Shown here: piece by piece, positions 3,962 to 63,520 of the stretch
Layout of the letters: each line of letters starts with the position of its first letter
Numbering within the stretch: the first letter of the stretch is position 1
NCBI GenBank assembly: GCA_016215335.1
Contig: JACRKE010000037.1
Location: 2,924 to 66,923, forward strand
DNA from: Candidatus Vogelbacteria bacterium
GTDB taxonomy: Bacteria; Patescibacteriota; Minisyncoccia; Phycocordibacterales; JACRKE01
DNA length: 64,000 nucleotides
Direction: 5' to 3'
Notes under the pieces: generated by a model
Database searches by the model: none
The model's input: only the letters and a program-made list of their open reading frames with translations
What the model was told of the DNA's origin: nothing
Made by a program: the position numbers and the translations under genes

Positions 3962-5239
3962 CTAGAATGGGTTTCTAGCTCCACGAACCTCAAAATGAAG
4001 ATGGGGGCCCGTTGATTTGCCAGTATTACCCAATAAACCGACAGTCTCTCCCTGCGCGACCCTGTCTCCGACTCCAACTGAACTCCTTAACAAATGAGAG
4101 TACAAAGTTTGGGTGCCGTTATCGTGGCTTACCACAACATAGTTGCCATAACCTCCATTCCATCCGCCTTGTCGACTTACAATGACCGTTCCCGCGGCAG
4201 CAGCCTTTATCGGGGCACCAGAACAACGGCACTCCGAAGCCAAGTCAACGCCATTGTATCCGTGCAATCCCTGTGTACGCCTGCCACCAGGCAAAGGATT
4301 CGCATAGTATCCGTTATAAGTAGGGCCGTTTATATCGTGCGCAGGATTATCTTTAACAGAGTCTTTTGAAACCCTATTTTTCGGAGGAGTCAAAACTACA
4401 ATCTCTCCGTCAGGAACCAATATTTCATCTCCTGCGCTAAGTCCATCTTGGATCACTTCTGAATTGAACAGTAAAATTTCGTCCGGATCCGCTTTGTACT
4501 TCGCCGCAATGCCACTAACTGTTTCACCCTTTTTGACAATATGTCTGACTCCGGTAACGGGCAATATGGTAAGAACCTGTCCCTCGGTCAGTTTTGAATT
4601 ACGGGAGAGATTGTTCGCCCAAAGCACTGTGTTTACCGAAACATTAAACGTCTTCGCTATCTCTCTCACACTGTCTCCGGCGCGTACCGTATACAAAGAT
4701 ATTTGGTCCGACCCCGCATAATCTCCTATGACATCAGCGATAGTTCCAAGGGGGCCGTCATCCGGAAGAAGAGAACCGCCGATAACACTTATATCTCCGC
4801 CGCCCATGGCGACAATTGTATTCGGGTTCTTTTCCGGATTAAGCAACGGCAAAGTTTGAGAATTGTTTCTCAAAATGGTTGACGGAGCGGCCTCCGCTTC
4901 ATGAAAAAGTTTAAAAAATGCGCGAGCCGGAATAGTGACCGCGAAAACCAAGACAAGAACGCTAAAAACAAAAAAACGCCTGTTCTCTCGAACCGGTGAG
5001 CAGAGGGAGTATATTTTGGCCTTAAGGGAGCTCGTGACGCTCCGGCTGGCCTTGGAATCTATAGATAAAATAAGCCTAATTATTTGGGTATTTTCTGAAT
5101 TCTTGAGTTTAAGCCTTCTGACTCTGAACCGGCCAAACCCCAAGAAATGCAACTGTACTTCCGTCCCTCTATCATAGCATGAATGGGCATGAATGAGAAC
5201 TCTAAAACACATTATCCTGTGGATAGGGGATTTGGTCAA
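3962..5239 (-). CDS. LysM-domain M23 family metallopeptidase
   Basis: Two LysM repeats (YTVRAGDSVREIAKTF..., HIVKKGETVSGIAAKY...) and a C-terminal M23 signature (HxxxD...GNTGKSTGPHLHFE). TM helix RRFFVFSVLVLVFAV near the N-terminus. True start uncertain: no ATG between 5212 and the TM segment, so the start may be internal or non-ATG. Confidence 0.75.
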   Translation of the reverse strand: MTKSPIHRIMCFRVLIHAHSCYDRGTEVQLHFLGFGRFRVRRLKLKNSENTQIIRLILSIDSKASRSVTSSLKAKIYSLCSPVRENRRFFVFSVLVLVFAVTIPARAFFKLFHEAEAAPSTILRNNSQTLPLLNPEKNPNTIVAMGGGDISVIGGSLLPDDGPLGTIADVIGDYAGSDQISLYTVRAGDSVREIAKTFNVSVNTVLWANNLSRNSKLTEGQVLTILPVTGVRHIVKKGETVSGIAAKYKADPDEILLFNSEVIQDGLSAGDEILVPDGEIVVLTPPKNRVSKDSVKDNPAHDINGPTYNGYYANPLPGGRRTQGLHGYNGVDLASECRCSGAPIKAAAAGTVIVSRQGGWNGGYGNYVVVSHDNGTQTLYSHLLRSSVGVGDRVAQGETVGLLGNTGKSTGPHLHFEVRGARNPF

Positions 5240-5385
5240 AATTTGACACTAAAGACATACACATGTTAATATAATAATCGGATTCGCGGCTGGGCAGTCG
5301 CGAAAATTTGTTGAAATGGAGGCGCCGAGTGAACAATAATCGAAGCAAGGACAACGAGCACGCGGAAGTATCGAGAGTCGAGTGC

Positions 5386-5889
5386 ATGACTGACAATGAA
5401 TTTTCAGCATGGGAAAGAGGGGCGAGCACGGAACCCGATCCATTGAGGACGATCCACGAAGCACGCTCGGGACTGCGAGATGTCGCCAGTCAGTCCAGTA
5501 TCAAGTCGGCTGGCAGGAGAATGTTCTCCTGGAGGCTGTCAGGCAACCTCCAGTTGATTCTAGCCGTAGCTTCAATGCTCTGCACTGTCGCCATCTTGCT
5601 CTGCTTGATGAGGATCAGGGCAGAGCGTGAGATTGTGTTTGCTGTCAACGCGACACTGCGGGCCGAGCTCTCTGATACAAGAGAACAACTGGCAAAGATG
5701 GAAATGAGTGTCGGACTGTTCAAGCAGTTGAACGGACTAGAGTTCTTCAGAGCCAAGGAAGGTGCAAGGCTGTCGGCGAGAGCTGCAATCTTGCACAGCA
5801 ATCTCGATACTCTTTTCACGACGCTGTCAGATAAACAGCGTCACAACAACAGCACCGCGAGAAGCACTCCCATTCCAATAGTCAAGTAA
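5386..5889 (+). CDS. hypothetical membrane/coiled-coil protein inside a GC-rich patch
   Basis: First in-frame ATG (MTDNEFSAW...) of ORF 5308..5889. One hydrophobic segment (LILAVASMLCTVAILLCLM) followed by a coiled-coil. Local GC clearly above surroundings. Confidence 0.3.
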   Translation: MTDNEFSAWERGASTEPDPLRTIHEARSGLRDVASQSSIKSAGRRMFSWRLSGNLQLILAVASMLCTVAILLCLMRIRAEREIVFAVNATLRAELSDTREQLAKMEMSVGLFKQLNGLEFFRAKEGARLSARAAILHSNLDTLFTTLSDKQRHNNSTARSTPIPIVK

Positions 5890-6179: not shown

Positions 6180-6977
6180 ATGAAAGCACAAACTTTTTGG
6201 GAACGTTTCAGAGATCTGAATCCTTGGCACGGGATGCTCATCTCTCTCATTATCATGGTGCTTTATGGAATATGGGCGCTTGGCGATGTGCGCGGGTCTC
6301 TCACGGTACTTTTAATGGTTGTACCAGTTGGCTTAGCCCTTGACTACATCTTGCATTATTTGCAAAACACAACGCTAAAAGGCAAATTTCCGGAGTCAGG
6401 CCTCATAACTTCGCTTATAGTAACAGTGCTAATGCCTCTTCAAGTGGCACCTCCGATCGCAATCGGCTCTATCATACTTGCCATACTTTCAAAGCATTTC
6501 GTTCGCTACGGAGGAGAGCACGTCTTCAATCCGGCTTCGTTCGGGGTGGTGGTCGTATCTCTTTTCACTCCATTTCCTCTGGCGTGGTGGCCGGACGGGT
6601 ACATATGGCTTGCAATATTACTTGGAGTTGTGAACCTGTGGCGCACCCGTAAATATTTCCAAGCTATCACTTTTCTTGCAGTTTACCTTGTATTTCTATT
6701 CACCATAGTAAACGATTCGAAAATCGCCCTACTATCTCTGCCGTTCTTCTTCGCCTGTTTTATGTTGCCGGAGCCGGTAACTTCCGAGGGAGGAATCAAG
6801 GGGCAGATATTTTTCGGTCTTTCAGCCTCCGTGGGAGCGATAATCGCAACATACATTCCGGCGATTTCGATGGCATCACTGCCGGCAGGATTGATGCTTG
6901 CAAACCTTACTCGTTATTTATGGAAAGACAACTCGCCAAAGTATTCTTTAACTCCCGGATTTGTTCCGCAAAAATAG
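6180..6977 (+). CDS. polytopic inner-membrane protein, unknown function
   Basis: 265 aa with at least 6 hydrophobic helices; no family motif recognised. Confidence 0.4.
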   Translation: MKAQTFWERFRDLNPWHGMLISLIIMVLYGIWALGDVRGSLTVLLMVVPVGLALDYILHYLQNTTLKGKFPESGLITSLIVTVLMPLQVAPPIAIGSIILAILSKHFVRYGGEHVFNPASFGVVVVSLFTPFPLAWWPDGYIWLAILLGVVNLWRTRKYFQAITFLAVYLVFLFTIVNDSKIALLSLPFFFACFMLPEPVTSEGGIKGQIFFGLSASVGAIIATYIPAISMASLPAGLMLANLTRYLWKDNSPKYSLTPGFVPQK

Positions 6978-6987
6978 TACGCGCAAA

Positions 6988-7016
6988 CTAAAACAGGCCC
7001 AGTTGGGCCTGTTTTA
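6988..7016. terminator. bidirectional intrinsic terminator between convergent genes
   Basis: aaacaggccc-agtt-gggcctgttt, 10-bp stem with an A-run before and a T-run after. Confidence 0.6.
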
Positions 7017-7032
7017 GTTCGCGGAATTAACG

Positions 7033-7566
7033 TTACTTAACTGTAACCGATCCGGCCGCTCCCGGGTTTAAATGATTGTGGAAACCGTAAGTACCGGCGA
7101 CCTTAAATGTATAGCTCCAACTTGCACCGGGCTGCAGCATACCGGAATCCATATCCGGATGTTCGGAGTGAACCGGGTGCGGGTTTGAAGAAACACGAAT
7201 TGCGGCATCAGAATTGTTCTTAAACGTTAATGAATCACCGACCTTCAAGGCAAGTGACGTTACATCAAATGCGCCTGAAGAATAACTCGCGTTTATATTT
7301 TTAGCCACTTCTGCTATTACTTGAGTGTTGACTTTGACGGTTGCCGGTGCGGCATCTTCAGCCGTGGCACTTGATGTTTCGGACGGCGCACTTGACTCAC
7401 CCGAAGCTGAACCACCTCCGAGAGCGGCGTCCGAATCCTTGGTTTCTGTTGTTGGAGAAATCGGCGCCGGCTCGGGGTTTTGAGTACTATCCCCTTGATT
7501 CTTATACCAAAAACCGAGGGCTGCCAATATTACTATGACGACGACTACGATACCTGCTGTTTTCAT
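7033..7566 (-). CDS. membrane-anchored exported protein with S/A/T-rich linker and beta-sandwich-like C-terminal domain
   Basis: N-terminal TM (IVVVVIVILAALGFW), low-complexity linker, C-terminal ~100 aa with cupredoxin-like hydropathy (GFHNHLNPG) but no Cys ligand. Confidence 0.35.
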   Translation of the reverse strand: MKTAGIVVVVIVILAALGFWYKNQGDSTQNPEPAPISPTTETKDSDAALGGGSASGESSAPSETSSATAEDAAPATVKVNTQVIAEVAKNINASYSSGAFDVTSLALKVGDSLTFKNNSDAAIRVSSNPHPVHSEHPDMDSGMLQPGASWSYTFKVAGTYGFHNHLNPGAAGSVTVK

Positions 7567-7668: not shown

Positions 7669-10074
7669 CTATCGTTTCAGACGAGCGAAAATGTTTTCGT
7701 CCACTTCGCGTCTGTCTTGACCGTAAATCAGACGAGACAACTCCTTTAATTTTTCGCGTACCTCAATGTTACCCCTCGGTGCAAATATGACTTTCGTCAA
7801 AAATGGGCGAGTGGGCACACCCCCGATAAGCATCTTTGTATGTCCAAAAAGATTATCTGAAGTCGTGAGATCGTGCGTGTTGAAAACCGGCTCAAACTGT
7901 TTACCTAGAGTTTCAGTATCCGGCACACCGACCCTGAAAGCGATCATGGAACCGACGTTTCCAAATATGGCATCTCTAATTTTGTCCCCCAATTGATTAA
8001 TGAACTGATTGGCGACTGTAAGACACAGACGATATTTTCTGGCTTCTGAAAGAATGGTTCCAATGGTATCCGTTGTGAAATTCTGGAACTCATCCATGTA
8101 CAGATAGAAATCTCGACGATCCTTCTCTTCCTGATCCACTCTCCCAAACGCAGCCATCATAAGTTTGCCTACAATTATCATACCTAGCAAATTTGCGTTC
8201 ATCTCGCCAATTACACCTTTTGGAAGGTTGACGAAGAGAATTTTGCCTTCATCCATAATCTTCCTGAAATCAAAAGCAGACTTCTGCTGACCGATAATAG
8301 GTCTCATATAGTCGTTGTTTACGAATTGTGTGAATTTGGAAGTTATATAAGTTGTCATGTTGGGAAGAGACCCTTCACCCGTACGCTTGGAAGCATTCTG
8401 CCAAAAACCGACAACAAGGGGATCCTTACAAAGTTCGAGTTTGCGATTACGATATTCATCGTCCGTAAACAGACGCTGGACATCGAGAAGGCTTGCGTGA
8501 GATTTCTCATACTGTGCGCACTCTGTGAGCAACAAAAGTGCGTTTCTGAAATAAAGTTCAAACATTGGACCGCCCGTGGTCTTCAAATCATAAAGCTTGT
8601 CGAAAATTGTGAGCATTTCATTCACCACAAACGATCTTTGCTCCGGGTGGTTGAGATCATACTCAAGCATATTGAGGCCAACAGGACGAGACATGTCGGA
8701 AGGGTCAAATATAATAACGTCTTCTATCCTTTCTTTTGGAACATTCGCAATCATTAGATTAAAGAAGTCAGTATTCGGGTCTATGATGCAGACTCCTTTA
8801 CCATTTCTAATATCCTGTGCGGCAAGGCTCGCGAGAAGTGCGGTCTTTCCGGATCCTGTCTGGCCAATGGAGTAAAGGTGGCGCCTGCGATCTTCGTCTG
8901 TCAGTTTTACCAGTTTTGTGTCGCCCCTGAAAACACTTTCACCTAAAATTATCCCCTCGTTCGGAAGATTCTCCGGAGGAGGGGCCTCCTTGTCCTTCAA
9001 CCATTTAACGTATGGCACCGAACTAGAAGTGGTCGGCAAGTGGAACATACTAGCCATCTCTTCGGTATTTAGAAGCATGGATTCGTCTTTCTTAAACTCT
9101 CTGAATGCGTACGAAAATATAAGCCCCCTCACATCTTTCGGCTTAATACACTCTATTGTATTTCTTTGCGGAGAAGAAAACTGAGCAAAGGCGCTGCCGA
9201 TAGAGAGAAGCAGGTCTTCGGCACGATCTTTCACGGTGGCAGCTGTTATAATTCTCAAATTAACTTCGAACAAAGGCTTCGCAATCTTCTGTTGTAGCGC
9301 CTTAATCGCATCTTCGTCGATTATGATTGGCTTTGTTTTGTCGTCATCTTTCTTGTCGTTATCGGTTGTCATGAGAAAAGATTTACCGATTTTTGCAATG
9401 TCTTTACCTCTTACGAATCTAGTGTCAATAGCCTCTGAAAGTTTCGTGCCCTTCTTTAGACTATTGATTGAACTTAGTATGGACTTTTTCGTAGAATCGG
9501 CACTTGGAATCGCAACCATTTGGAGAGAGGCGCCTTCACCTTCAGTCGCGAGCTTGCTAAATGAGCTCAAAATCGGCCCAAATGTATCGGCTTCAGCCTC
9601 TTTGTATGTACGAATTGGCAAGACGAAGCTATCTTTAAGGCGCATGTACGCCGCGGAAGCCTTGGCCCCAGGCGCAAAAATAGTGTAATCAGAAATCTCC
9701 TCAATCTGCGCATCTAGAAATACTCCCTGTATCTGTCTGGCCGCGAATTCTACGTATTGCTTTGGCACGGCAACGTAGAAAAGGATGTCTTGCGTTTTAT
9801 TCAAAACTGAAACCTCGAAAACAAATGGTTGCTTAATGGCCGCAAGAGCTGCGAAAACTTGTTCCGATAGCATTATCTGCTTTGTGAGTTCATTTTTTTC
9901 TTTAGCGGCCTCATCGCCCTCATTTCTCGGCAACCTGAGAGAGAGCAGTCTCAAATCAAGCATCTCTTGGGCAACCTTCGAACCGCCTTTTTTTGCTTTG
10001 AATATCAGATACGCGACCAGGAGCAACAGTGCGACCGCGACCAAAATATATAAATAGAGCGAAATTTGAGACAT
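7669..10074 (-). CDS. type IV secretion coupling-protein-like ATPase (VirD4/TraG/TraD-like)
   Basis: N-terminal TM helix, Walker A GQTGSGKT, Walker B-plus motif LYMDEFQNF...ARKYRLCLTVANQFINQL typical of TraG/VirD4 (DE...RK...Q..Q), 801 aa. Confidence 0.55.
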   Translation of the reverse strand: MSQISLYLYILVAVALLLLVAYLIFKAKKGGSKVAQEMLDLRLLSLRLPRNEGDEAAKEKNELTKQIMLSEQVFAALAAIKQPFVFEVSVLNKTQDILFYVAVPKQYVEFAARQIQGVFLDAQIEEISDYTIFAPGAKASAAYMRLKDSFVLPIRTYKEAEADTFGPILSSFSKLATEGEGASLQMVAIPSADSTKKSILSSINSLKKGTKLSEAIDTRFVRGKDIAKIGKSFLMTTDNDKKDDDKTKPIIIDEDAIKALQQKIAKPLFEVNLRIITAATVKDRAEDLLLSIGSAFAQFSSPQRNTIECIKPKDVRGLIFSYAFREFKKDESMLLNTEEMASMFHLPTTSSSVPYVKWLKDKEAPPPENLPNEGIILGESVFRGDTKLVKLTDEDRRRHLYSIGQTGSGKTALLASLAAQDIRNGKGVCIIDPNTDFFNLMIANVPKERIEDVIIFDPSDMSRPVGLNMLEYDLNHPEQRSFVVNEMLTIFDKLYDLKTTGGPMFELYFRNALLLLTECAQYEKSHASLLDVQRLFTDDEYRNRKLELCKDPLVVGFWQNASKRTGEGSLPNMTTYITSKFTQFVNNDYMRPIIGQQKSAFDFRKIMDEGKILFVNLPKGVIGEMNANLLGMIIVGKLMMAAFGRVDQEEKDRRDFYLYMDEFQNFTTDTIGTILSEARKYRLCLTVANQFINQLGDKIRDAIFGNVGSMIAFRVGVPDTETLGKQFEPVFNTHDLTTSDNLFGHTKMLIGGVPTRPFLTKVIFAPRGNIEVREKLKELSRLIYGQDRREVDENIFARLKR

Positions 10075-15769: not shown

Positions 15770-16078
15770 ATGTCAAAAACAAAGAAGGTACTCAAGGACA
15801 TTATTATAGAACAGCTCGGCATAGATGAACTTCCCAAAGAAGATCAGGATGAAATCGTGGCTGGCATAAGCGGTAACGTCCTAAAGTCCATTACTCTCGC
15901 AATCCTAGAAAGGGTACCTAAAGACGACAGGCCCAAATTCGACAAGGTTAAAGAGAAAGGCGACAGAGAAGAGATAAAAAAATTCCTACAAAAATACGTT
16001 TCTGATCTTGAGTCTCTAGTAGAAGAAGAGACCAAGAAATGCATCAATGAGTTCAGGGCAATCGTTGCGTCGCTTTAA
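15770..16078 (+). CDS. small acidic alpha-helical protein (cassette S2), paralogue of 14236..14547
   Basis: 102 aa, starts 3 nt after the L2 stop; ~30% identity to S1 over its full length. Confidence 0.45.
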   Translation: MSKTKKVLKDIIIEQLGIDELPKEDQDEIVAGISGNVLKSITLAILERVPKDDRPKFDKVKEKGDREEIKKFLQKYVSDLESLVEEETKKCINEFRAIVASL

Positions 16079-16101
16079 AGACAAGCCACTGAATTACTAG
16101 C

Positions 16102-16449
16102 TCACAGCCCTGCCATAGCTGGACTTTTCAGAACAGATAGATCTGAAACAAGATCTATTCTTATTTTGTTGAGTGCGTTTAACACCCGCAAAGAGAAATC
16201 AGGTATTTGAGAACCTATTTTTTCCATTACCCCTCTCGGGTCTGGCTTTTCTGATTCAATCTCTTTTTTGACGAGTGCGGCCTGTTCGGGATCCATCGCT
16301 CCAACCATTTCTAGGAAAAGGCGCGCGTTCACCCTGTCGATGAGAGTTTTTTTGAACTGCCAATAGTGCATCGAGTCGTCTTTTTCGTTTACTCCTACTT
16401 CATCTAAGATGTCCACTACAAACTGCTCAATTATATTTATTTGTTCCAT
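16102..16449 (-). CDS. small acidic protein (possible divergent third member of the S family)
   Basis: 115 aa; begins INIIEQFVVDILDEV, resembling the IIIEQLGIDEL start of S2; overlaps the stop of 16437..18287 by 13 nt. Confidence 0.35.
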   Translation of the reverse strand: MEQINIIEQFVVDILDEVGVNEKDDSMHYWQFKKTLIDRVNARLFLEMVGAMDPEQAALVKKEIESEKPDPRGVMEKIGSQIPDFSLRVLNALNKIRIDLVSDLSVLKSPAMAGL

Positions 16450-18287
16450 ATTCTTTTAACGGCACCCCACATTCGCGGAGGCCATGTTACTACTGATGCC
16501 GGATTAATTAATAATTTTAGTGAAGCCACTACTCCGTAACCACTTTCCTTTGCTGCTTGAAACAATTTAGGAAGTTGCGTCATCTCTGCACCGCTCGAGA
16601 CGAATGTACCCACAGTACGTTCAACCTTGGCAACCAAACCCTCGTCAAACATATCATTCACTTTGAGTCTTGCTAAATCTCTACTAACCGCAGTCTCCTC
16701 ATGAATACTATCCAGCATATATGTTGCTGTTTGTAATTCAGCACTTGTGAGTTTCTTCTGGCCTTCAATTAGACTGCCAACCAATTCAGCTCGTTCTCGT
16801 TGTTCAATTTTATTCCTATCGCTCGTTGCGCCGGACATTTTGGTTCGCTCGCGGATTAGACTCACATTAGCTTCATGCGCGGCATGAATAAATCTAAGCC
16901 AGCCAGGGGAAATCGTTTGGTTGCCTATTTTTTCAAACTTAAAGCCTAAATTATCTGGGCTGCTCGCTATTTTTTTCACAGTTTCGAGTATTATGAGTCT
17001 TGGATCAGCCTCTCCATCTTCAAGCGCTCGCGGCTTTTTTGAAAATTCTTCCGCAGCTTCGATCATGCTATCAAGTCTTGAGACATCCGCACGGCTCGCG
17101 TTTTCTTCAATTAAACCTTTTATTCCACCGGCGACGAACATTGCCGCAGCTCCTCCGGCAACTGCACTAGGCCACCACGCCAGTGAGCCCGCAACGTCGG
17201 CAATTGTTTGTATTTTTGAGGCCACCATGCCCGCAATATCTGCTTGCGATCTACTCATCATCTCTGTGGCCTGATTCACCATTCTTGTCGCCCATTCGCC
17301 TATAATAGGCATCTGGCCTGCGGTTTGTCTTAGCGACTCCACAGAAGCAAGTTTGCTTTGAATAAAACTTGCAATATCTTGCAAGTGGGGAGCAGCTAAC
17401 TCTGTAAGCTTTGCGGCTGTAGCATTTACTGCTGCGATAGCACCCGCTTCTCCAACCAAATATCCACCAACGGCAGCGCTTGTACCGGCCACTCCGACAT
17501 TCTTTACGATCTTTCCAACTTTTGTGGTTAATACATACTCAACAATACTCATAACATCCTCACTGCTCGCGGCTTTGTTCATGAGTTTTACTGTCTCTGC
17601 GTCAAACAGTGGTAATCCATCCACCGAAATTTTCTCCAGTTTACCGACCAGATCAATCATGCCTTTCTCGCCATCATAAGTTCGCAGGATATCTTTTTTC
17701 AACCTGTCTATCTTCGCATTATGATCCACCGTTGTCGTAACCAAATCTCTGGGAGCTTGGGAAACCAGTTCAGTTTGTTCTCTCTGTGGCCTAAGAGATT
17801 CAACACCTTGGGGCGCTTCAGCTTTCATTCCTGTTTTTTGCTCTTGTCGAGCTCCTTCCGCCGGATGCTCTCTTTCTACAGCTTTGTTTGTCGCTTTTTC
17901 AAGCTCAATCCTTTGTCTGATCCTGTCCGCCACCGCCTTGAATCTGTCAGACTCTTTCGACACGTCCGGGGAAGAAACAGTTTCGGGAGTTTTTGTGTCT
18001 GATTTTTTTGGAGGCACAACTGAAGCCTCTGCGCTTTGCGCGGGCGCTTCCGATGCTTTTGTTCTCGCTTTTAATCTTTCGGGCCTCTGCTCGCGTAGTC
18101 GGCGTAATTTTGCAAACTCGTCTTCCTCTGCGCTGTCTGCTTTCACATTTGGCTGGTTGGATGCGGATAATATCTTTTTCACAGAGTCGTCTATGCCTGC
18201 CGGCATAGAGTCAGCAGGGGAGCGATCTTTTTCATCTTTTCTGCTTCGGCCACTTTGTTGTGTAAAATCTGGGATGTCTTGGCTCAT
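16437..18287 (-). CDS. large charged protein with glycine-zipper blocks (cassette L0)
   Basis: 616 aa. K/E/R-rich N-terminal third; Gly/Ala-rich hydrophobic blocks (AVGGYLVGEAGAIAAV, SAVAGGAAAMFVAGGIKG). Confidence 0.4.
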   Translation of the reverse strand: MSQDIPDFTQQSGRSRKDEKDRSPADSMPAGIDDSVKKILSASNQPNVKADSAEEDEFAKLRRLREQRPERLKARTKASEAPAQSAEASVVPPKKSDTKTPETVSSPDVSKESDRFKAVADRIRQRIELEKATNKAVEREHPAEGARQEQKTGMKAEAPQGVESLRPQREQTELVSQAPRDLVTTTVDHNAKIDRLKKDILRTYDGEKGMIDLVGKLEKISVDGLPLFDAETVKLMNKAASSEDVMSIVEYVLTTKVGKIVKNVGVAGTSAAVGGYLVGEAGAIAAVNATAAKLTELAAPHLQDIASFIQSKLASVESLRQTAGQMPIIGEWATRMVNQATEMMSRSQADIAGMVASKIQTIADVAGSLAWWPSAVAGGAAAMFVAGGIKGLIEENASRADVSRLDSMIEAAEEFSKKPRALEDGEADPRLIILETVKKIASSPDNLGFKFEKIGNQTISPGWLRFIHAAHEANVSLIRERTKMSGATSDRNKIEQRERAELVGSLIEGQKKLTSAELQTATYMLDSIHEETAVSRDLARLKVNDMFDEGLVAKVERTVGTFVSSGAEMTQLPKLFQAAKESGYGVVASLKLLINPASVVTWPPRMWGAVKRIWNK

Positions 18288-20428: not shown

Positions 20429-21394
20429 ATGGTAGCTAGCATGAAATACAAAAAAACAAAACTGAATGATGGGCCCCAACCAGCTACTAACCACCGACTA
20501 CTAACTACGCATCCAAAACGCTCCCTAGGGCAAAATTTTTTAACTTCAGAAGCGGCTGTCGCGAAAATTGTTGCTGCGGGCGAAATCAAATCAGATGACA
20601 CTGTTCTTGAGATCGGTCCAGGGAGGGGAGTACTCACAAAAAAACTTCTATCCCTTGCTAGAAAAGTAATAGCGGTCGAAAAAGACGACGAGCTATTTGA
20701 ACTACTCCAAAATAAATTTGCCAAAGAAATCGAAACAGGAAGGTTGCAACTTGTGCATGAGGACATCTTGAAATTTGATGAATCTAACTACAACCTACTA
20801 ACTACAACCTACAACCTAATTTCAAACATTCCATACAACATTACAGGTGCGATCCTCCGTAAATTCTTAACATCAGAACACCAACCATCAACAATGGTTC
20901 TGCTCGTACAAAAAGAGGTGGCGGAAAGAATCGTTGCGCGTGACGGAAAAGAGAGTTTACTCTCCGTAAGTGTGAAGGTCTATGGAAATCCGCAATATAT
21001 AGCTACAGTTAAGGCCGGCAGCTTCTTCCCAGCTCCAAAAGTGGACTCGGCGATAATAAAAATAAGTGACATTTCCCGCGACTTTTTCACCCACATGGAA
21101 ACCGAGCTTCAAAATAAAATAACGTCTAAGAATAACGATTTTACAGAGGGTTCCCCTCTGTATGTGGATAAGTCTGACGTGGAAAGAGAGTTTTTTGAGT
21201 TTGTTTCGGCTGGGTTTGCTCACAAGCGCAAGCTTCTATCCCGGAATTTGGCAGGATATTTTGGAGACCAGGGAGAATGGCTTCAGGCGTGCACAATTGT
21301 AAAAATAAATCCCAAATCCAGGGCGGAAAACTTAAATATTGAAAATTGGAAAATACTCTTTAACTTATCCACAAAAAACCAGAAAAATCCTTAG
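20429..21394 (+). CDS. rsmA: 16S rRNA (adenine1518/1519-N6)-dimethyltransferase RsmA/KsgA
   Basis: SLGQNFL, SAM-binding motif LEIGPGRGVLT, NIPYNIT motif; in-frame heptamer-repeat insert (YNLLTTTYNL) and extended C-terminus. Confidence 0.8.
   Translation: MVASMKYKKTKLNDGPQPATNHRLLTTHPKRSLGQNFLTSEAAVAKIVAAGEIKSDDTVLEIGPGRGVLTKKLLSLARKVIAVEKDDELFELLQNKFAKEIETGRLQLVHEDILKFDESNYNLLTTTYNLISNIPYNITGAILRKFLTSEHQPSTMVLLVQKEVAERIVARDGKESLLSVSVKVYGNPQYIATVKAGSFFPAPKVDSAIIKISDISRDFFTHMETELQNKITSKNNDFTEGSPLYVDKSDVEREFFEFVSAGFAHKRKLLSRNLAGYFGDQGEWLQACTIVKINPKSRAENLNIENWKILFNLSTKNQKNP
20784..20818. repeat. CTAACTA/CAACCTA heptamer array (5 units) in frame within rsmA
   Basis: ctaactacaacctactaactacaacctacaaccta encodes NYNLLTTTYNL; related degenerate copies at 20379-20396 and 20477-20510. 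Confidence 0.8.
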
Positions 21395-40979: not shown

Positions 40980-41237
40980 ATGCTAAAGATTGCAGATTTA
41001 ATAAATAGATACACTAAACTTACGGTTCCTGATGGAATTTTACGCGCGAAAGTTTCAGAACTCATTATGCGGGAAATAGGTTTTGATATCCCCGTAGACA
41101 AAATAACAGTTAGAAGAAAAATTGCATTTGTAAATTGCTCACCAGCCATAAAATGTGAATTACAGATTAGAAAAGAGAAGATTCTCTCTAGTCTTATGGA
41201 CGAGTTAGGTAAAGATGCCCCGATAGACATCTCGTGA
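40980..41237 (+). CDS. small protein downstream of dnaN (DUF721/DciA-like candidate)
   Basis: 85 aa; a DUF721 gene is often found at this position; assignment by context only. Confidence 0.3.
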   Translation: MLKIADLINRYTKLTVPDGILRAKVSELIMREIGFDIPVDKITVRRKIAFVNCSPAIKCELQIRKEKILSSLMDELGKDAPIDIS

Positions 41238-41267
41238 TTCACTTGGAAGCTCGGCTTCCAAGTGAAT
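41237..41267. repeat. REP-like palindrome copy (ATTCACTTGGAAGC-TCGG-CTTCCAAGTGAAT)
   Basis: Perfect 13-bp stem; fills exactly the gap between the convergent stop codons of 40980..41237 and PBP1A. Confidence 0.8.
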
Positions 41268-43891
41268 TAATTCAAGGAAATAATTATCGCCTGAGTTGCT
41301 TCACCTTTATTCCCGATAGAATCTGTAACTACTGCTTTCAAAACATTGTTGGAGCCAATGAGACCGATGTCTTGCGGTACAAAAGTGAAACTGTACGGTT
41401 TTATGGTGCTTGATCCTATGTAGATGTTATTGAAATAAAATGAAGCTTGTGTGGTGGGGTACTGGCTCGTGGCCGTTACACTAATCGCTATTCGATCGTA
41501 TGTCCTAAACACGCTCGAAGTTCCTGGAAGATCGAATACAACTGTGGGTCTAGTTGATCTTGAGTGCGAAGTATCTACTGTGGTTGGTATCACAGAGCTG
41601 TCGCTATCAACGTATCCTTGTGCCGCAGCCCAAATTCTTACCGGTGTTTCCCATAGATTAAATTGCGGGTCGTTGCCCGGGTTTGAGGGTTTCGGTCCTA
41701 GCGGGTCATTTTTGTTTACCCAATATAAAATGGAGTGTACGCTTGGCACTACTCTAGGCTCTCTATAATCCTCGGGAGTTTCGGCTGTAGCAAGAGCTCC
41801 TGAAACCTTGTCTATTACATATTCTTGGCCGCCTTGCCATACTCCCCTTAGCACAGGTTTGATGTTTGTCGGAGTGGGTTCCGGTTTAGGAAAAGTTTCT
41901 TTGGGAAGAGAAGGCAGTAAATCTTGCATGAGAGAATTCCAGACAGGGGCCACCACCATTCCCGCCACTTTTTTGTCGATCGGCTTGTTGTCATTGTTTC
42001 CTGCCCAGATACCCACTGCTATATTCGGTGTATATCCCATAATCCAAACGTCTCTGTAATTATTGGTGGTTCCAGTCTTTGCAGCTACTGGTCGGTCGGG
42101 TATATAGAGTAGGGAATTGCTTCCAAACGCCGGAGTACGCGCTTCGTTGTCTGTTAAAATGTCTGTGATCTGTCGTGCTACCTGTTCAGAAATTGCCCTT
42201 TCCGGTTCTGATTGCCACTGCTCAAGAGTATTACCGTCTCTATCTTCTACCTTTATTATACTTGCCTCAGGATTTCTCATTCCATCGTTTGCAAACACAC
42301 TGTAGGCTTCTGTGAGATCAAGTAGTGACACTTCGCCTCCTCCAAGTACCAGCGTGAGGCCGTATCTAGCTGGGTCATCTAATCCGCGTATCCCCATTTT
42401 CTTTGCTGTCGCTATCGAATCTTTTATCCCGGCGAGGTATAGGGCCTTGATGGCGGGAACGTTTACTGACTGGGCGAGTGCATTCCTTATCGTCATTGGA
42501 CCTGTGTATTTGAGGTCATAGTTTTCAGGAGAGTAACATCTACTAGGGTTTGTGTTGCCTATTGGCCTCGAATCGTAAGTGCAGTTTGCGTTGAATTCGG
42601 TCCTTAAGTTAAAGAGAATGGTGTCTGGGGTGTAACCCTTGGCGAATGCCGTGGCGTATACGAATGGTTTGAAAGTAGAACCCGGTTGTCTGTGAGCGAT
42701 TGCGACGTTGAAATTTCCCTCGCCACCCTCTTCGAAGTAATCACGTGAGCCGACCATAACCAGTATCTGTCCTGTTTTTGGATCGACACCGACGATGCTC
42801 ATATTTTTTGCGTTGAATTTGGCCTCAAGTTCCGGTCCGAATTTGCGTGCGTTAGCTTCGGCTTTCTGTTGCATCTCCCAATCAAGCGAGGTGGTAACTT
42901 TAAGTCCGCCGTTGTCTACAACATCTTTGCCGTACTTTTCTTCAAGATACATTTTCACATACATTACAAAATGCGGGGCTTTAATTTTTCGGTTTGCAAC
43001 CGGTGCAAACTGGACATCTTCCGCTTTAGCCTGTTCTTCTTCGTCTTTAGTGATAAAACCAAGCTCTTTCATTCTACGCAATACTGTTTTCTGCCTGTTC
43101 CGGAGTGCATCTATGTGAGTACCATAGGGTGAATAGTAACTTGGGGCTTGCGGCATGGCGGCCAGATATGCTGCTTCAGCTATAGTTACGTCGTTCGCGT
43201 TTTTGCCGAAATAAGCGAGACTGGCCTCCTCAACGCCATATAAGCTTCCACCATACGGACTTTCGTTTAAATAAAGTGCGAGAATCTGGTCTTTGCCGAT
43301 AACACGCTCGAGTTTTATGGCGAGAATCATTTCAACAATTTTTCTGGATACGGACTTTTGTTGAGTGAGGAGCGAGTTTTTTATTACCTGCTGAGTAATA
43401 GTAGAACCGCCTTGGCTGAACCTGCCAGATGTTAAGTTGACCCAAGTGGCGCGGGCTAACGAGAGTGGCTCTATCCCTATGTGATGATAAAAGTTCGAAT
43501 CTTCAATGGCTACAGTCGCGTTTTTTATATTTCTTGAAATCTGGTCACCCGAGACAACTGTTCGTTGTATGTCTTGGTGCGCGTCAAAAAGCAAAATTTT
43601 TCCGGTTTTGTCATAAATCTTCGTCGACTGCGTAATTAAACGTTCATTGAACGAATTAAAGTCTGGGATAGTGAGGGTGGAGACCCATATCATAAACAAG
43701 CCACTCAAAATAAGGATGAACGCAAGCAGGGCGAAAGCGAGTTCTTTCAGATGATGCCGTGTTATTTTCTTTGTTCTGCGCCATAGTCGTTTGGACCAGG
43801 GTACATTATGTGTTGTGTGCGAAACGAAGTCTTTCATAAACTTATTAAAGAATGCTAGCATGATTTTCGGGCTTCTGATAGGTTTGAGCAA
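41267..43891 (-). CDS. class A penicillin-binding protein (PBP1A-type transglycosylase/transpeptidase) with C-terminal beta-rich extension
   Basis: N-terminal TM; GT51 motifs (EDSNFYHH, GGSTITQQV); transpeptidase SxxK (STFKPF), SVN and KTGTT motifs; ~200-aa C-terminal extension. Confidence 0.85.
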   Translation of the reverse strand: MLKPIRSPKIMLAFFNKFMKDFVSHTTHNVPWSKRLWRRTKKITRHHLKELAFALLAFILILSGLFMIWVSTLTIPDFNSFNERLITQSTKIYDKTGKILLFDAHQDIQRTVVSGDQISRNIKNATVAIEDSNFYHHIGIEPLSLARATWVNLTSGRFSQGGSTITQQVIKNSLLTQQKSVSRKIVEMILAIKLERVIGKDQILALYLNESPYGGSLYGVEEASLAYFGKNANDVTIAEAAYLAAMPQAPSYYSPYGTHIDALRNRQKTVLRRMKELGFITKDEEEQAKAEDVQFAPVANRKIKAPHFVMYVKMYLEEKYGKDVVDNGGLKVTTSLDWEMQQKAEANARKFGPELEAKFNAKNMSIVGVDPKTGQILVMVGSRDYFEEGGEGNFNVAIAHRQPGSTFKPFVYATAFAKGYTPDTILFNLRTEFNANCTYDSRPIGNTNPSRCYSPENYDLKYTGPMTIRNALAQSVNVPAIKALYLAGIKDSIATAKKMGIRGLDDPARYGLTLVLGGGEVSLLDLTEAYSVFANDGMRNPEASIIKVEDRDGNTLEQWQSEPERAISEQVARQITDILTDNEARTPAFGSNSLLYIPDRPVAAKTGTTNNYRDVWIMGYTPNIAVGIWAGNNDNKPIDKKVAGMVVAPVWNSLMQDLLPSLPKETFPKPEPTPTNIKPVLRGVWQGGQEYVIDKVSGALATAETPEDYREPRVVPSVHSILYWVNKNDPLGPKPSNPGNDPQFNLWETPVRIWAAAQGYVDSDSSVIPTTVDTSHSRSTRPTVVFDLPGTSSVFRTYDRIAISVTATSQYPTTQASFYFNNIYIGSSTIKPYSFTFVPQDIGLIGSNNVLKAVVTDSIGNKGEATQAIIISLN

Positions 43892-53405: not shown

Positions 53406-53443
53406 AGAAGCCTTGCTTCCTAATGCATTTGGAAGCAAGGCTT
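53406..53443 (+). terminator. strong hairpin after the GC-island gene
   Basis: gaagccttgcttcc-taatgcattt-ggaagcaaggcttc, 14-bp perfect stem, then aaagcctgttt. Confidence 0.5.
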
Positions 53444-53767
53444 CAAAGCCTGTTTGGCGGATAGTCCGGGCCAAACCCAAGGGCGGCGAGCACTTGCTCG
53501 CGGGTTTCAGTGGAAGGAGGACGATATGACAGCGAGAGAGCGCATGTCCCGCCCGACTTCCACTCTCTCATTAAGTTGTTGACTAAGGCTTAAAGTAAGC
53601 ATAGCCTAGTCGAGAACTTATAAGAGAATTCAACAGGACATATACAATTTCGTCTTTACGAAGCAATCGGGCCATGGCGGTCCATGGGTCTCAATTGCTT
53701 CGCGTTAGCTCGCAAAGACGTCCAAATTGTGAATCCTTCGAGCATATTAATGAGTAATTTAAACATT

Positions 53768-62346: not shown

Positions 62347-62520
62347 ATGCAGTGTCCTGAATGTCAGGCGTACAGTGGGAATACTCACGAGACGTGGTGT
62401 CCTGGTAGAAGGAAAGAAGAAGAGGTGAAGAATTTCGGTAAAGTGCAGGCATACAGATGTCCGACGTGCCAAGCGTACAAAGGCAACGTGCACGAATCAT
62501 GGTGCCAGTATCGCAAATAG
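62347..62520 (+). CDS. small Cys-rich protein with tandem CPxCQAYxGNxHExWC motifs (zinc-ribbon-like)
   Basis: Not in the ORF track (57 aa): MQCPECQAYSGNTHETWCPGRRKEEEVKNFGKVQAYRCPTCQAYKGNVHESWCQYRK. AAGGAG SD 9 nt upstream; followed by a hairpin plus T-run terminator. Confidence 0.5.
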   Translation: MQCPECQAYSGNTHETWCPGRRKEEEVKNFGKVQAYRCPTCQAYKGNVHESWCQYRK

Positions 62521-62603
62521 GAAAGAAGCAGACGAAAGGTTATCAATCCGTGCAGGCCAGACGTAACATCTGACGGCAGAACGTCTTAGATTCTGTCACT
62601 ATC

Positions 62604-62634
62604 GACCCCGCCCAAGGCGGGGCCGTTTTCTTTA
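62604..62634 (+). terminator. intrinsic terminator after the small Cys-rich ORF
   Basis: gaccccgcc-caa-ggcggggcc followed by gttttcttt. Confidence 0.6.
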
Positions 62635-62648
62635 GTAAATTTAATTTG

Positions 62649-62721
62649 TCCGCCCACCTGGATTCGAACCAGGGACCACTTCCTTAAAAGGGAATTGCTC
62701 TACCAACTGAGCTATGGGCGG
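62649..62721 (-). tRNA. tRNA-Lys (anticodon UUU)
   Basis: Minus-strand cloverleaf: acceptor CCGCCCA/TGGGCGG; D-arm GCTC-AGTTGGTA-GAGC; anticodon loop CTTTTAA (U33, UUU, A37); T-arm CCTGG-TTCGAAT-CCAGG; discriminator A; CCA not encoded. Confidence 0.85.
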
Positions 62722-62773: not shown

Positions 62774-62798
62774 CACTTGGAAGCCGAGCTTCCAAGTG
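62774..62798. repeat. REP-like palindrome copy, inverted orientation (CACTTGGAAG-CCGAG-CTTCCAAGTG)
   Basis: Same core, with loop CCGAG (the reverse complement of the CTCGG loop of the other copies); 14 nt upstream of the HUH transposase start. Confidence 0.8.
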
Positions 62799-62811
62799 AT
62801 ATGATTAAATT

Positions 62812-63453
62812 ATGAGAAACTTAGATTTTGTGGAGGGCGAATATTACCATATTTACAATCGGGGCACTGACAAAAGGTCGATTGTTGAGGATGCTTATGA
62901 TTCCAATCGTTTTGTTCAGTGCCTTAAGGAGTTGAATGTAAAGGACCCGATTGGTAGTATGTTTGAAAATTCATTTAGGAATAAAGACACATCATCAGAA
63001 CCGCTTGTTGATATCGTATGCTATTGTCTGAATCCTAATCACTACCATTTACTTCTTAGCCCTCACGTTGAAAATGGAATAGAAAAGTTCATGCATAGAC
63101 TCGGGACCGCACATACCAAATATTATAACAATAGACACAAGAGAAATGGAGTCTTGTTTCAGGGCAAGTTTAAGGCGGTATATGTAGCGGATAATGACTA
63201 TTTGCTACACGTTAGTTCGTATGTGAATATTAATGATAGGGTACACCAACTTGGAAGCTCGGCTTCCAAGTTGGTGAGATCGAGCTGGGATGAGTATGTT
63301 CTGAACAAGACTGGATTTTGTGTTAAGGATGTTGTTTTGGGTCAATTTAAAAATCCGAATGAGTACAAGAAGTTTGCGGAGGATTCCTTGAGTTCAATGT
63401 TAGACAGCAAGAAAGAACAACGGGAGCTGGATAATTTTGAGTTTGACGTATAG
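62812..63453 (+). CDS. HUH/Y1 single-strand DNA transposase (IS200/IS605 TnpA- or RAYT-like)
   Basis: YCLNPNHYHLLLSP (HuH motif in IS200-typical context) and a downstream Tyr-rich catalytic segment QGKFKAVYVADNDYLLHVSSYVNIN. The ORF continues through an internal REP-like palindrome, so the functional protein may end near 63240. Confidence 0.65.
   Translation: MRNLDFVEGEYYHIYNRGTDKRSIVEDAYDSNRFVQCLKELNVKDPIGSMFENSFRNKDTSSEPLVDIVCYCLNPNHYHLLLSPHVENGIEKFMHRLGTAHTKYYNNRHKRNGVLFQGKFKAVYVADNDYLLHVSSYVNINDRVHQLGSSASKLVRSSWDEYVLNKTGFCVKDVVLGQFKNPNEYKKFAEDSLSSMLDSKKEQRELDNFEFDV
63244..63276. repeat. REP-like palindrome copy inside the transposase ORF (CACCAACTTGGAAGC-TCGG-CTTCCAAGTTGGTG)
   Basis: 14-bp perfect stem; reads in frame as HQLGSSASKLV. 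Confidence 0.75.
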
Positions 63454-63465
63454 GTAGCTTAACAA

Positions 63466-63502
63466 CCCATCTACTTGGAAGCTCGGCTTCCAAGTAGATG
63501 GG
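63466..63502. repeat. REP-like palindrome copy (CCCATCTACTTGGAAGC-TCGG-CTTCCAAGTAGATGGG)
   Basis: 16-bp perfect stem, 13 nt downstream of the transposase stop. Confidence 0.8.
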
Positions 63503-63520
63503 TATAGGAGTTTTAACAAT

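Follow-up and report, generated by a model that had tools for sequence, protein, structure and literature searches.

A Y1 HUH transposase-like gene of Candidatus Vogelbacteria and the perfect hairpin found before it, within it, after it and elsewhere

Why should the same perfect hairpin stand before, inside and behind a small transposase-like gene of a patescibacterium, and what is this gene? The question is raised by a stretch of 64,000 nucleotides from Candidatus Vogelbacteria (contig JACRKE010000037.1, positions 2,924 to 66,923), which is called here the window. In it, an open reading frame (ORF) encoding 213 amino acids lies between two copies of a palindrome. An earlier note, made from the sequence without database searches, had described this arrangement as a REPtron-like unit, that is, a transposase gene of the REP-associated tyrosine transposase (RAYT) type placed between inverted copies of a repetitive extragenic palindromic (REP) element. 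Our results indicate that this is probably a gene of the REP/RAYT kind which has been kept vertically in Patescibacteria together with a partner hairpin at four places of its cassette: upstream of the gene (U), at two sites within it (S1 and S2) and downstream (D). With the same degree of confidence, given jointly to the whole explanation, the product of the ORF is read by analogy as an endonuclease/ligase for single-strand DNA that belongs to the Y1 HUH enzymes of the REP-associated (RAYT or TnpA-REP) kind.

The nature of the protein was studied at the levels of sequence, family and fold. Its sequence matched the Pfam Y1_Tnp profile (PF01797) with 36.8 bits (cutoff 23, E-value 4.9e-9), and in an alignment of 120 homologs the residues N76, H77, H79, Y137, N139, N141 and H145 were invariant, while L147, K153 and the S157/S158/W159 motif were nearly so. 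The proposal of the earlier note that the ORF is a Y1 HUH transposase was thereby upheld, both by the profile and by the invariance of H77, H79 and Y137. The tyrosine motif is YVNIND in the window protein and YVNLND in the consensus, with an invariant N followed by D, and the C-terminal part is also conserved among the homologs (SSW, Q178, Y185 and a long helix). The AlphaFold (AF2) model, with a predicted local distance difference test (pLDDT) of 90 and a predicted template modelling score (pTM) of 0.87, presented a beta strand at residues 77-84, a helix at 128-139 and a long C-terminal helix. Its best match among solved folds was 4er8_A, the E. coli RAYT-REP complex (template modelling score 0.67 on the target; 11% sequence identity), and the next ones were the TnpA structures of IS608 and ISDra2 (2a6m and 2xm3). 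Altogether 2378 homologs were found, every named one belonging to Patescibacteria, and a profile search of 1.84 billion representatives gave 1130 clusters at E<=1e-30. An identical protein is recorded as 'transposase' of a Candidatus Vogelbacteria metagenome-assembled genome (MAG). A look-up of the exact protein, aimed at following the contig past the window, gave no record. It had also been proposed to look for truncation of the protein near 63240 in related genomes, and no homolog was truncated at the hairpin.

Four perfect copies of ACTTGGAAGC-NNN-GCTTCCAAGT were identified in the window, versus 0.03 expected by chance, and their positions were those given in the earlier note: U, S2, D and a copy at 41237 far from the gene (Table 1). 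When written as CTTGGAAG-N5-CTTCCAAG, the pattern gave four exact matches and one relative with two mismatches at 53428. The arithmetic of the core had to be corrected, as it consists of a 10-bp stem plus a 3-nt loop (equivalent to 9 bp plus a 5-nt centre) and not of 10 bp plus 5 nt; likewise, the stems, previously described as 13-16 bp, measured 11-18 bp in total, the inverted-repeat finder giving 11, 15, 18 and 14 bp for U, S2, D and the 41237 copy, all with 3-nt loops. Folding of the four perfect copies as single-stranded DNA (ssDNA), a check that the earlier note had suggested, showed that all of them are stable: free energies (dG) ranged from -11.9 to -20.6 kcal/mol and z values from -7.6 to -10.3, beating every shuffle (U, -11.9 kcal/mol, z -7.6; the 41237 copy, -14.7 kcal/mol; S2, -17.6 kcal/mol; D, -20.6 kcal/mol, z -10.3). 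D has no T-run, and none of the hairpins was called a terminator by the terminator scan. The intragenic copy S2 is indeed in frame, CACCAACTTGGAAGC-TCG-GCTTCCAAGTTGGTG being read as H145-QLGSSASKL-V155 (HQLGSSASKLV). Equally exact was the observation that the 41237 copy fills the gap between two convergent stop codons, with which it shares its outermost bases: the A at its left end doubles as the final base of the TGA that stops ORF 40980..41237, and the T at its right end as the initial base of the TTA that stops the minus-strand ORF 41267..43891. These convergent genes are an 85-aa ORF after dnaN and a PBP1A-like gene, respectively. A relaxed scan of the window added three degenerate copies (53427-53449, 21093-21115 and 7944-7966), which makes seven matches versus 0.18 expected in shuffles. 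The two members of the doublet at 53407-53449 together form a stem of 14 bp closed by a loop of 10 nt (dG -17.0 kcal/mol, z -5.5), and the doublet is similar to a REP doublet forming hairpins (REPIN), whereas the other two are possibly decayed in-frame copies inside long ORFs.

The arrangement was then compared with that of relatives, for which 80 Patescibacteria metagenome loci, picked by protein patterns alone, were used; these provided 64 gene models. In these protein-selected loci perfect hairpins recurred at four fixed places, namely U, S1, S2 and D. Perfect unit hairpins were carried by 57 of the 64 gene models, the commonest layouts being U+S2+D (14 models), U+S1+D (11) and all four places (9). 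Perfect U and D were both present in 36 models, and at least U in 52. The window gene has the U+S2+D layout, with S1 empty. The position of U is well defined, as the TTGG of its foot lies 35-37 nt 5' of the ATG (37-39 nt when counted from ACTTGG) in 29 of the 56 relatives' loci in which the foot was found. S1 is located around residues 57-66, in a variable loop ahead of the HuH motif, where the hairpin behaves as a presence/absence insertion; S2 occupies approximately residues 147-159, about 8-10 residues past the catalytic Tyr; and D begins 0-23 nt past the stop codon or overlaps it. Most homologs have the palindrome-coded peptide at the position of S2, many have a second copy of it at S1, and its variable residues agree between S1 and S2 in each protein. 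In a more diverse set, the representatives at 50% identity, 43% had a palindrome-compatible heptapeptide at S2 and 38% had one at S1, the expected shares being 6% and 14%, respectively. The inverted orientation of the flanking copies, to which the earlier note had drawn attention, is true for the window but is not a feature of the family: across 57 distinct loci U and D were inverted in 25, in the same orientation in 28 and in another arrangement in 4. The inverted pair of the window is one of two equally common states, and orientation was rejected as a defining feature. In some loci (L140, L145, L149, L153 and L185) the reading frame enters the D hairpin and the stop codon (TAA, TAG or TGA) is in its loop or centre.

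The sequence of the 23-nt hairpin is made of two parts with different behaviour. The foot, ACTTGG/CCAAGT, is near-universal across loci, whereas the lineage-specific stem top (3-4 bp) and the 3-nt loop differ between loci via compensated changes, with stem variants such as TTGGAAG, TTGGAGG, TTGGCGG, TTGGGGG, TTGGGTG, TTAGACG and TTGGACA, among others. Of the copy pairs within a locus, 80% had the same arm and 71% the same centre, versus 9% and 4%, respectively, of those between loci. The covariation was also studied at S2, by cutting a fixed-offset 41-nt segment from each locus, blind to pairing, and keeping the in-register sequences (53 of 78). In these 53 loci, 11 of the 15 pairs had changes on both sides (105 cells) and the covariation score was 0.358, versus 0.156 in shuffles, a value reached by none of 500; partners slid along the segment gave 0.04-0.11. 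As this covariation sits in coding sequence, a conserved peptide alone cannot explain the pairing. The syntenic loci L162, L184 and L157, each of which has either TTGGAGG or TTGGCGG in every one of its copies, show concerted change at an orthologous position. The copies within a genome change together, and orthologous cassettes elsewhere carry different compensated stems.

Several hairpin variants can also coexist in one genome. A 600-bp non-coding stretch of a Patescibacteria MAG (JAHIHZ010000017; L033, positions 5180-5800) contains at least eight ACTTGG-foot hairpins with five stem tops (TTGGAAG, TTGGAAA, TTGGTGG, TTGGTGC and TTGGGTG), interleaved with a second repeated hairpin, CATAGGAGTTTCCTATG, and resembles the clusters known as bacterial interspersed mosaic elements.

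The U copy has a peculiarity of its own, as it overlaps the promoter that a consensus scan flagged before the gene (Table 1). The -35 hexamer TTGGAA (62777-62782) is within the left arm of U, the TG of the extended -10 (62797-62798) constitutes the last two bases of the right arm, and the -10 hexamer TATGAT (62800-62805) is found 6 nt from the ATG. This organization recurs in most of the relatives: CCAAG-TGnTAnnnT directly abuts the U hairpin in most loci, and TGnTAnnnT was present in 55 of 66 homolog loci, 49 of which have it ending 6-9 nt ahead of the ATG (background, 2.9% per 30 nt). The left-arm TTGG is 17 bp 5' of the -10 hexamer, which is the position of a -35. Where the upper part of the stem is decayed, both feet (ACTTGG and CCAAGTG) are still kept, together with the -10. 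Beside the dispersed copies, TGnTAnnnT was found at 0 of 201 sides and, as a consequence, the fusion with the promoter is specific to the gene's own U copy; for the same reason the possibility that the dispersed hairpins are portable promoters was rejected. The pattern implies that U forms part of a conserved extended -10 promoter and, because its -10 is only 6 nt from the ATG, a leaderless mRNA starting at A62812 is predicted. A comparison of Shine-Dalgarno sequences was uninformative and was not used, a Shine-Dalgarno-like 4-mer being found in 1 of 35 window ORFs with crude first-start calls.

The presence of the palindrome away from the gene, also claimed by the earlier note, is attested by the 41237 copy of the window and by copies in the relatives' genomes. 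The flanks of the relatives' genes contained 12 copies in 374 kb (3.2 per 100 kb), and about 8 of these 12 share the centre of the cassette, by our reading of the listing. In addition, species-representative genomes were scanned for the core of the window; among the matches listed, most were Patescibacteria loci, including Saccharibacteria, with the gene not nearby, and one genome had at least seven copies on four contigs. The matches of the 16-base pattern outside Patescibacteria were discarded as chance, since they have no stem extension and, by our own calculation, about 140 are expected in 596 Gb. Half of the dispersed sites (37 of 74) are in frame inside long ORFs, where they encode the peptides LGSxASK (16 sites), LEAxLPS (18) and TWKxGFQ (3); the palindrome is stop-free in all three frames. 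The genes harbouring them include those for GyrB, DnaE, RecG, FtsK, ArgRS and the CCA-adding enzyme. When DnaE is compared with Thermus Pol III alpha (2hpi), the copy stands out as a clean insertion of 17 aa, whereas for GyrB the comparison was ambiguous, the site being a variable linker. In ArgRS (L019, L044 and L069) hairpin peptides are found at two homologous places in different frames (LGSSASK versus LEAQLPS). Tandem hairpin-derived peptides, one of them decayed, were also observed: NLEAQLPSNSNLEVELPSG in a FAD-linked oxidase (L089, about 199-260) and PLGSSTSKLHSEVELPRK in DnaE (L107, about 7480-7530).

The intergenic copies are mostly within about 20 nt of a gene 3' end. The self-complementary outer stems that differ from site to site, noticed first in the window copies, proved to be general, as 27% of the dispersed copies extend at least 3 bp beyond the core versus 1.6% expected. 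Several of these outer stems look like GC-rich terminator stems. This suggests, by analogy with some REP families (PMC3733652), insertion at the apex of existing hairpins; an alternative is the 'perfection' of quasi-palindromes by template switching.

Concerning the inheritance of the cassette, nine pairs of loci had at least 70% RAYT identity; seven of these pairs have one or more flanking genes in common, and in six there are such genes to the left and to the right. This synteny is exemplified by L192/L202 (95%), L115/L134 (75%) and L162/L184 (71%), and is also found in L157/L162 at 69%; between distant genomes the gene neighbourhood differs. There was one cassette copy per recovered locus or contig, and no tnpB was found near the gene in the window or in the neighbourhoods of the relatives. 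These sequence comparisons point to a vertically inherited, domesticated RAYT rather than to an active insertion sequence (IS). No relative was found in the viral contigs searched, and a phage-borne origin was dropped for this reason.

The following model, built by analogy with E. coli TnpA-REP and IS608 TnpA, whose biochemistry is established, would account for these data. The enzyme would bind the folded hairpin on ssDNA, for instance at the replication fork, reading the ACTTGG foot plus the lineage-specific stem top, and would cut beside the hairpin and rejoin the ends. By acting repeatedly on nearby DNA it would replace older copies, which would become homogenised and have their loops flipped, and from time to time a new copy would arise. 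For these new copies the apex of a hairpin already present would be a frequent landing place, leaving the perfect outer stems specific to each site. The gene's own DNA would be the nearest substrate, which may account for the copies in and around the gene. Since the palindrome has no stop in any of its three frames, copies would be tolerated in the loops of proteins, two of which belong to the enzyme. Transcription of the gene might be shut off when the promoter copy is bound or extruded, as a negative feedback. A broader version is offered only tentatively, and we consider it rather doubtful: gene and hairpin would form a self-maintaining enzyme-substrate pair, in which the recognition hairpin is kept as an operator in the promoter, as a linked master copy in frame just past the catalytic Tyr and as a copy after the stop, the enzyme continually rewriting each copy from the others. 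The pair would be kept across Patescibacteria and perhaps used by the host, at replication forks or hairpin-forming sites, and peptides of 7-11 residues in loops of essential replication and translation proteins would be a by-product.

Other explanations of the same data were considered. The cassette could be an autonomous insertion sequence of the IS200/IS605 type, which transposes as a whole and has the flanking hairpins as its left and right ends. The Y1 transposase fold, the hairpins at both gene ends, the neighbourhood varying between distant genomes and the adjoining tRNA gene all fit such an element. However, this explanation is very unlikely in view of the single copy per contig, the several pairs (69-95% protein identity) in which the genes flanking the cassette are conserved to the left and to the right, the lack of a TnpB partner, the Y---N motif instead of the Y---Q of IS200 (PMC6006769), the solo hairpins dispersed without the gene and the absence of relatives on viral contigs. 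Moreover, the ends are here the same perfect palindrome in either orientation, whereas those of IS200/IS605 elements are distinct and imperfect. It is also unlikely, although less so, that the hairpins are ordinary cis-regulatory structures (operator, terminator or mRNA stabiliser) on which the enzyme does not act, their likeness being due to gene conversion or selection. From one genome to the next, the sequence of the hairpin follows the linked Y1 gene, and the DNA lying exactly between the copies codes for an ssDNA nuclease fold of the hairpin-binding type; both facts argue against it, as do the lack of T-runs and of terminator calls, the half of the dispersed copies that are inside ORFs and the promoter motif at 0 of 201 dispersed sides, hence no portable promoters; in its favour are the inclusion of U in a promoter, the low number of copies and the intergenic ones within about 20 nt of gene 3' ends, like REPs and terminators. 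The least probable explanation, which we practically discard, is that the intragenic palindrome is a by-product of a needed peptide, HQLGxxxSKLV, and that the external copies are unrelated or derived from the gene by chance. Although H145 is invariant, L147, K153 and S157/S158/W159 are nearly so and the segment has a similar length in palindrome-free homologs, the variable residues change in pairs whose codons are reverse complements (S/A, G/A, N/V and G/P, among others) and base pairing is kept through double changes in 11 of 15 pairs, which largely refutes it. In addition, identical DNA, including the loop, recurs in non-coding copies of the same genome, and the insertion at S1, which lies in a variable loop, is present or absent depending on the homolog.

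The REP/RAYT reading has its own weak points, and the following data weigh against it. With the NCBIfam RayT model (NF047646) the protein scored 24.5 bits, below the cutoff of 80; the RAYT identity given by the earlier note agrees with the best fold match (4er8) and not with the RAYT-specific profile. The tyrosine motif is Y---ND in place of the Y---NP of class 2. A PDB sequence search with the family profile returned only spurious RNase A matches (E-value 0.04 or weaker) and, therefore, the link with RAYTs and IS608 rests on fold comparison. The foot of the hairpin does not contain the GT[AG]G or CGTC read by canonical RAYTs. The intragenic copies are common but not obligatory, and the overall density of the hairpin is low, at about 3 per 100 kb. 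Per base this is roughly four times lower than that of the E. coli REPs, going by general counts for that species. The hairpin peptides of ArgRS fill segments equal in length to those of hairpin-free homologs, and this pattern looks like replacement rather than cut-and-paste insertion. Finally, binding, cleavage and autoregulation by the protein are all proposed by analogy, and the copies could possibly be homogenised without it, through gene conversion of the ordinary type or through repair templated by the palindrome.

Comparison with known systems places the family near, but not within, those described. With the REPtron/RAYT of E. coli (yafM plus REP, PDB 4ER8; PMC3333891, PMC3479197, PMC5581495) it shares the Y1 HUH fold, with 4er8 as top match, the single copy per recovered locus and a probable vertical inheritance, a gene flanked by its own cognate palindrome which is also dispersed, the intergenic copies being mostly at gene 3' ends, and the covariation of enzyme and hairpin genome by genome. 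Unlike it, the protein is under the RayT cutoff and has 11% identity to 4er8, the foot is ACTTGG and not GT[AG]G, the stems are perfect and unbulged, copies are present at fixed in-frame places and in the promoter, and there is no fixed inverted (REPIN) arrangement around the gene. GTAG follows the core in some copies only, such as the D copy of the window and L003. While REPs are high-copy and mainly extragenic, this hairpin has a density of about 3 per 100 kb, and one half of the copies sampled lie inside genes. Thus, the earlier note was essentially right, and its description as a REPtron-like unit holds for the cognate flanking palindromes and their dispersal, but this is not a canonical REPtron as regards the RayT hidden Markov model, the foot and the copy number. 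The comparison with relatives added three features of the family to that description: the fixed positions, the fusion with the promoter and the concerted evolution.

In-frame copies inside the gene have a precedent in TnpAY1 subclass 2.4 (Bertels Group 4), where REPs flank tnpAREP and also sit inside the gene with the frame kept (PMC6006769). Both systems have flanking and in-frame copies, and the flanking 16-mers of subclass 2.4 are also low-copy (14 occurrences). However, its insertions are located past the HuH motif, in the interval from beta3 to alphaC, and vary in length and sequence (PMC6006769), whereas the Patescibacteria copies are fixed, before HuH (S1) and about 8 residues past the Tyr (S2; residues 145-155), outside the interval between these two motifs. 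The motifs (NH[IFV]H, WQ and YIxNNP versus NHYH, FQ and YVNLND) and the hosts (Cyanobacteria and Bacteroidetes versus Patescibacteria) differ too. The closest published motif pattern is that of TnpAY1 subclass 2.1 (Bertels Group 1; 'TIRYT' of Di Nocera 2013), with NH[YF]H, FQ, Y[IV]HLNP and a conserved Ser-Ser in the tail past the core, and also with a similar length of about 210-240 aa. That subclass has been reported without REP association, with terminal inverted repeats or nothing, and often with a C-terminal helix-turn-helix or DnaA_C domain (PMC6006769); in the Patescibacteria family, by contrast, there are cognate hairpins, NP is replaced by ND and the C-terminal part forms a long helix.

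REPs have also been described inside replication/repair and tRNA-synthetase genes, some within site-specific 'target palindromes' (PMC3733652). As in these REPs and in the Rickettsia palindromic elements (PMC3733652; Ogata 2000 cited there), palindromes are here in frame in functional genes, and the types of target are shared: replication/repair and tRNA synthetase genes (PMC3733652) versus DnaE, GyrB, RecG, FtsK and ArgRS in Patescibacteria. In contrast to both, the Patescibacteria element is much shorter (21-33 nt, 7-11 aa), has another foot and has a linked enzyme gene carrying the same element at fixed sites. The IS200/IS605 TnpA proteins (IS608 and ISDra2) are similar in their HUH/Tyr chemistry and fold, in the hairpins near the gene ends and presumably in recognition on ssDNA; they differ in being multi-copy and accompanied by TnpB, and in having Y---Q instead of Y---N, while the Patescibacteria cassette has identical perfect palindromes at both ends and a conserved chromosomal position.

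A literature search on REPs or RAYTs in the candidate phyla radiation (Patescibacteria) gave nothing relevant in the library searched, which is incomplete. With respect to earlier reports, the host phylum, the type of hairpin, the fixed S1 and S2 sites, the promoter-embedded copy and the concerted evolution at syntenic loci are new. REP/RAYT biology would thus extend to the reduced genomes of Patescibacteria, among whose sampled members the system is compact and widespread, and this family would be an unusually clean case of RAYT/REP co-evolution and host retention. The hairpin is short and perfect, its specificity region (stem top plus loop) is easy to read, and there are many independent lineages, several of them syntenic, in which all copies have switched together. 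The linked promoter copy predicts autoregulation, and both the recognition rules and the homogenisation can be directly tested with oligonucleotides and the 213-aa protein. The in-frame palindromes in DnaE, GyrB, RecG, FtsK and ArgRS matter for annotation, alignment and structural work.

Table 1. Coordinates of the gene, the hairpin copies and associated features in the 64-kb window
Feature	Position	Strand or location	Description
213-aa Y1 HUH (TnpA-REP/RAYT-like) gene	62812..63453	+	Pfam Y1_Tnp match; fold match 4er8_A
HuH motif N76-H77-Y78-H79	63037..63048	+	Codons AAT CAC TAC CAT; N76, H77 and H79 invariant in 120 sequences
Presumed catalytic Tyr137 codon	63220..63222	+	Motif S-x-Y-V-N-I-N-D; end of helix 128-139 in the model
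Empty S1 site (K58/D59 junction)	62983..62988	+	Many homologs have an in-frame hairpin here (QLGSxASKL); none in the window gene
Predicted sigma-70-type promoter on the U hairpin	62777..62805	+	TTGGAA-17-TATGAT with TG; flagged by consensus scan
Upstream hairpin (U)	62774..62798	no strand	CACTTGGAAGC-CGA-GCTTCCAAGTG; 11-bp stem, loop CGA; foot ACTTGG starts 37 nt 5' of ATG
Intragenic hairpin S2	63244..63276	+	CACCAACTTGGAAGC-TCG-GCTTCCAAGTTGGTG; 15-bp stem, loop TCG; in frame
Downstream hairpin (D)	63465..63503	no strand	ACCCATCTACTTGGAAGC-TCG-GCTTCCAAGTAGATGGGT; 18-bp stem, loop TCG; begins 12 nt past stop
Dispersed copy	41237..41267	no strand	Same core, loop TCG, 14-bp stem
Two degenerate copies, inverted, 9 nt apart	53407..53449	intergenic	Loops CTT and AAG; before 1314-aa ORF at 53684
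Probable decayed copy, low confidence	21093..21115	inside ORF 20429..21394 (+)	ACATGGAAACCGAGCTTCAAAAT; 16/20 arm positions match
Probable decayed copy, low confidence	7944..7966	inside ORF 7669..10074 (-)	TCATGGAACCGACGTTTCCAAAT; 15-16/20 arm positions

The surroundings of the cassette and other parts of the window gave some additional observations. The tRNA-Lys(UUU) gene that had been reported beside the unit is located at 62648-62721 on the minus strand. Just before it, at 62606-62622, there is a clean intrinsic terminator (CCCCGCC-CAA-GGCGGGG plus a T-run), placed 3' of a 57-aa ORF within 62347-62622 that contains a duplicated Cys motif (CPxCQAY.GN.HE.WC twice) and gave weak zinc-ribbon matches. 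In the genome of the closest homolog (L003, 60% identity) a gene for an RVT_1 reverse transcriptase adjoins bAvd at 16045-17452, about 6 kb from the cassette, and this pair is probably a diversity-generating retroelement. Finally, an unrelated inverted repeat was found at 6982-7023 of the window, between the convergent ORFs 6180..6977 (+) and 7033..7566 (-), with 20-nt arms, CGCAAACTAAAACAGGCCCA and TGGGCCTGTTTTAGTTCGCG, that are 95% complementary.

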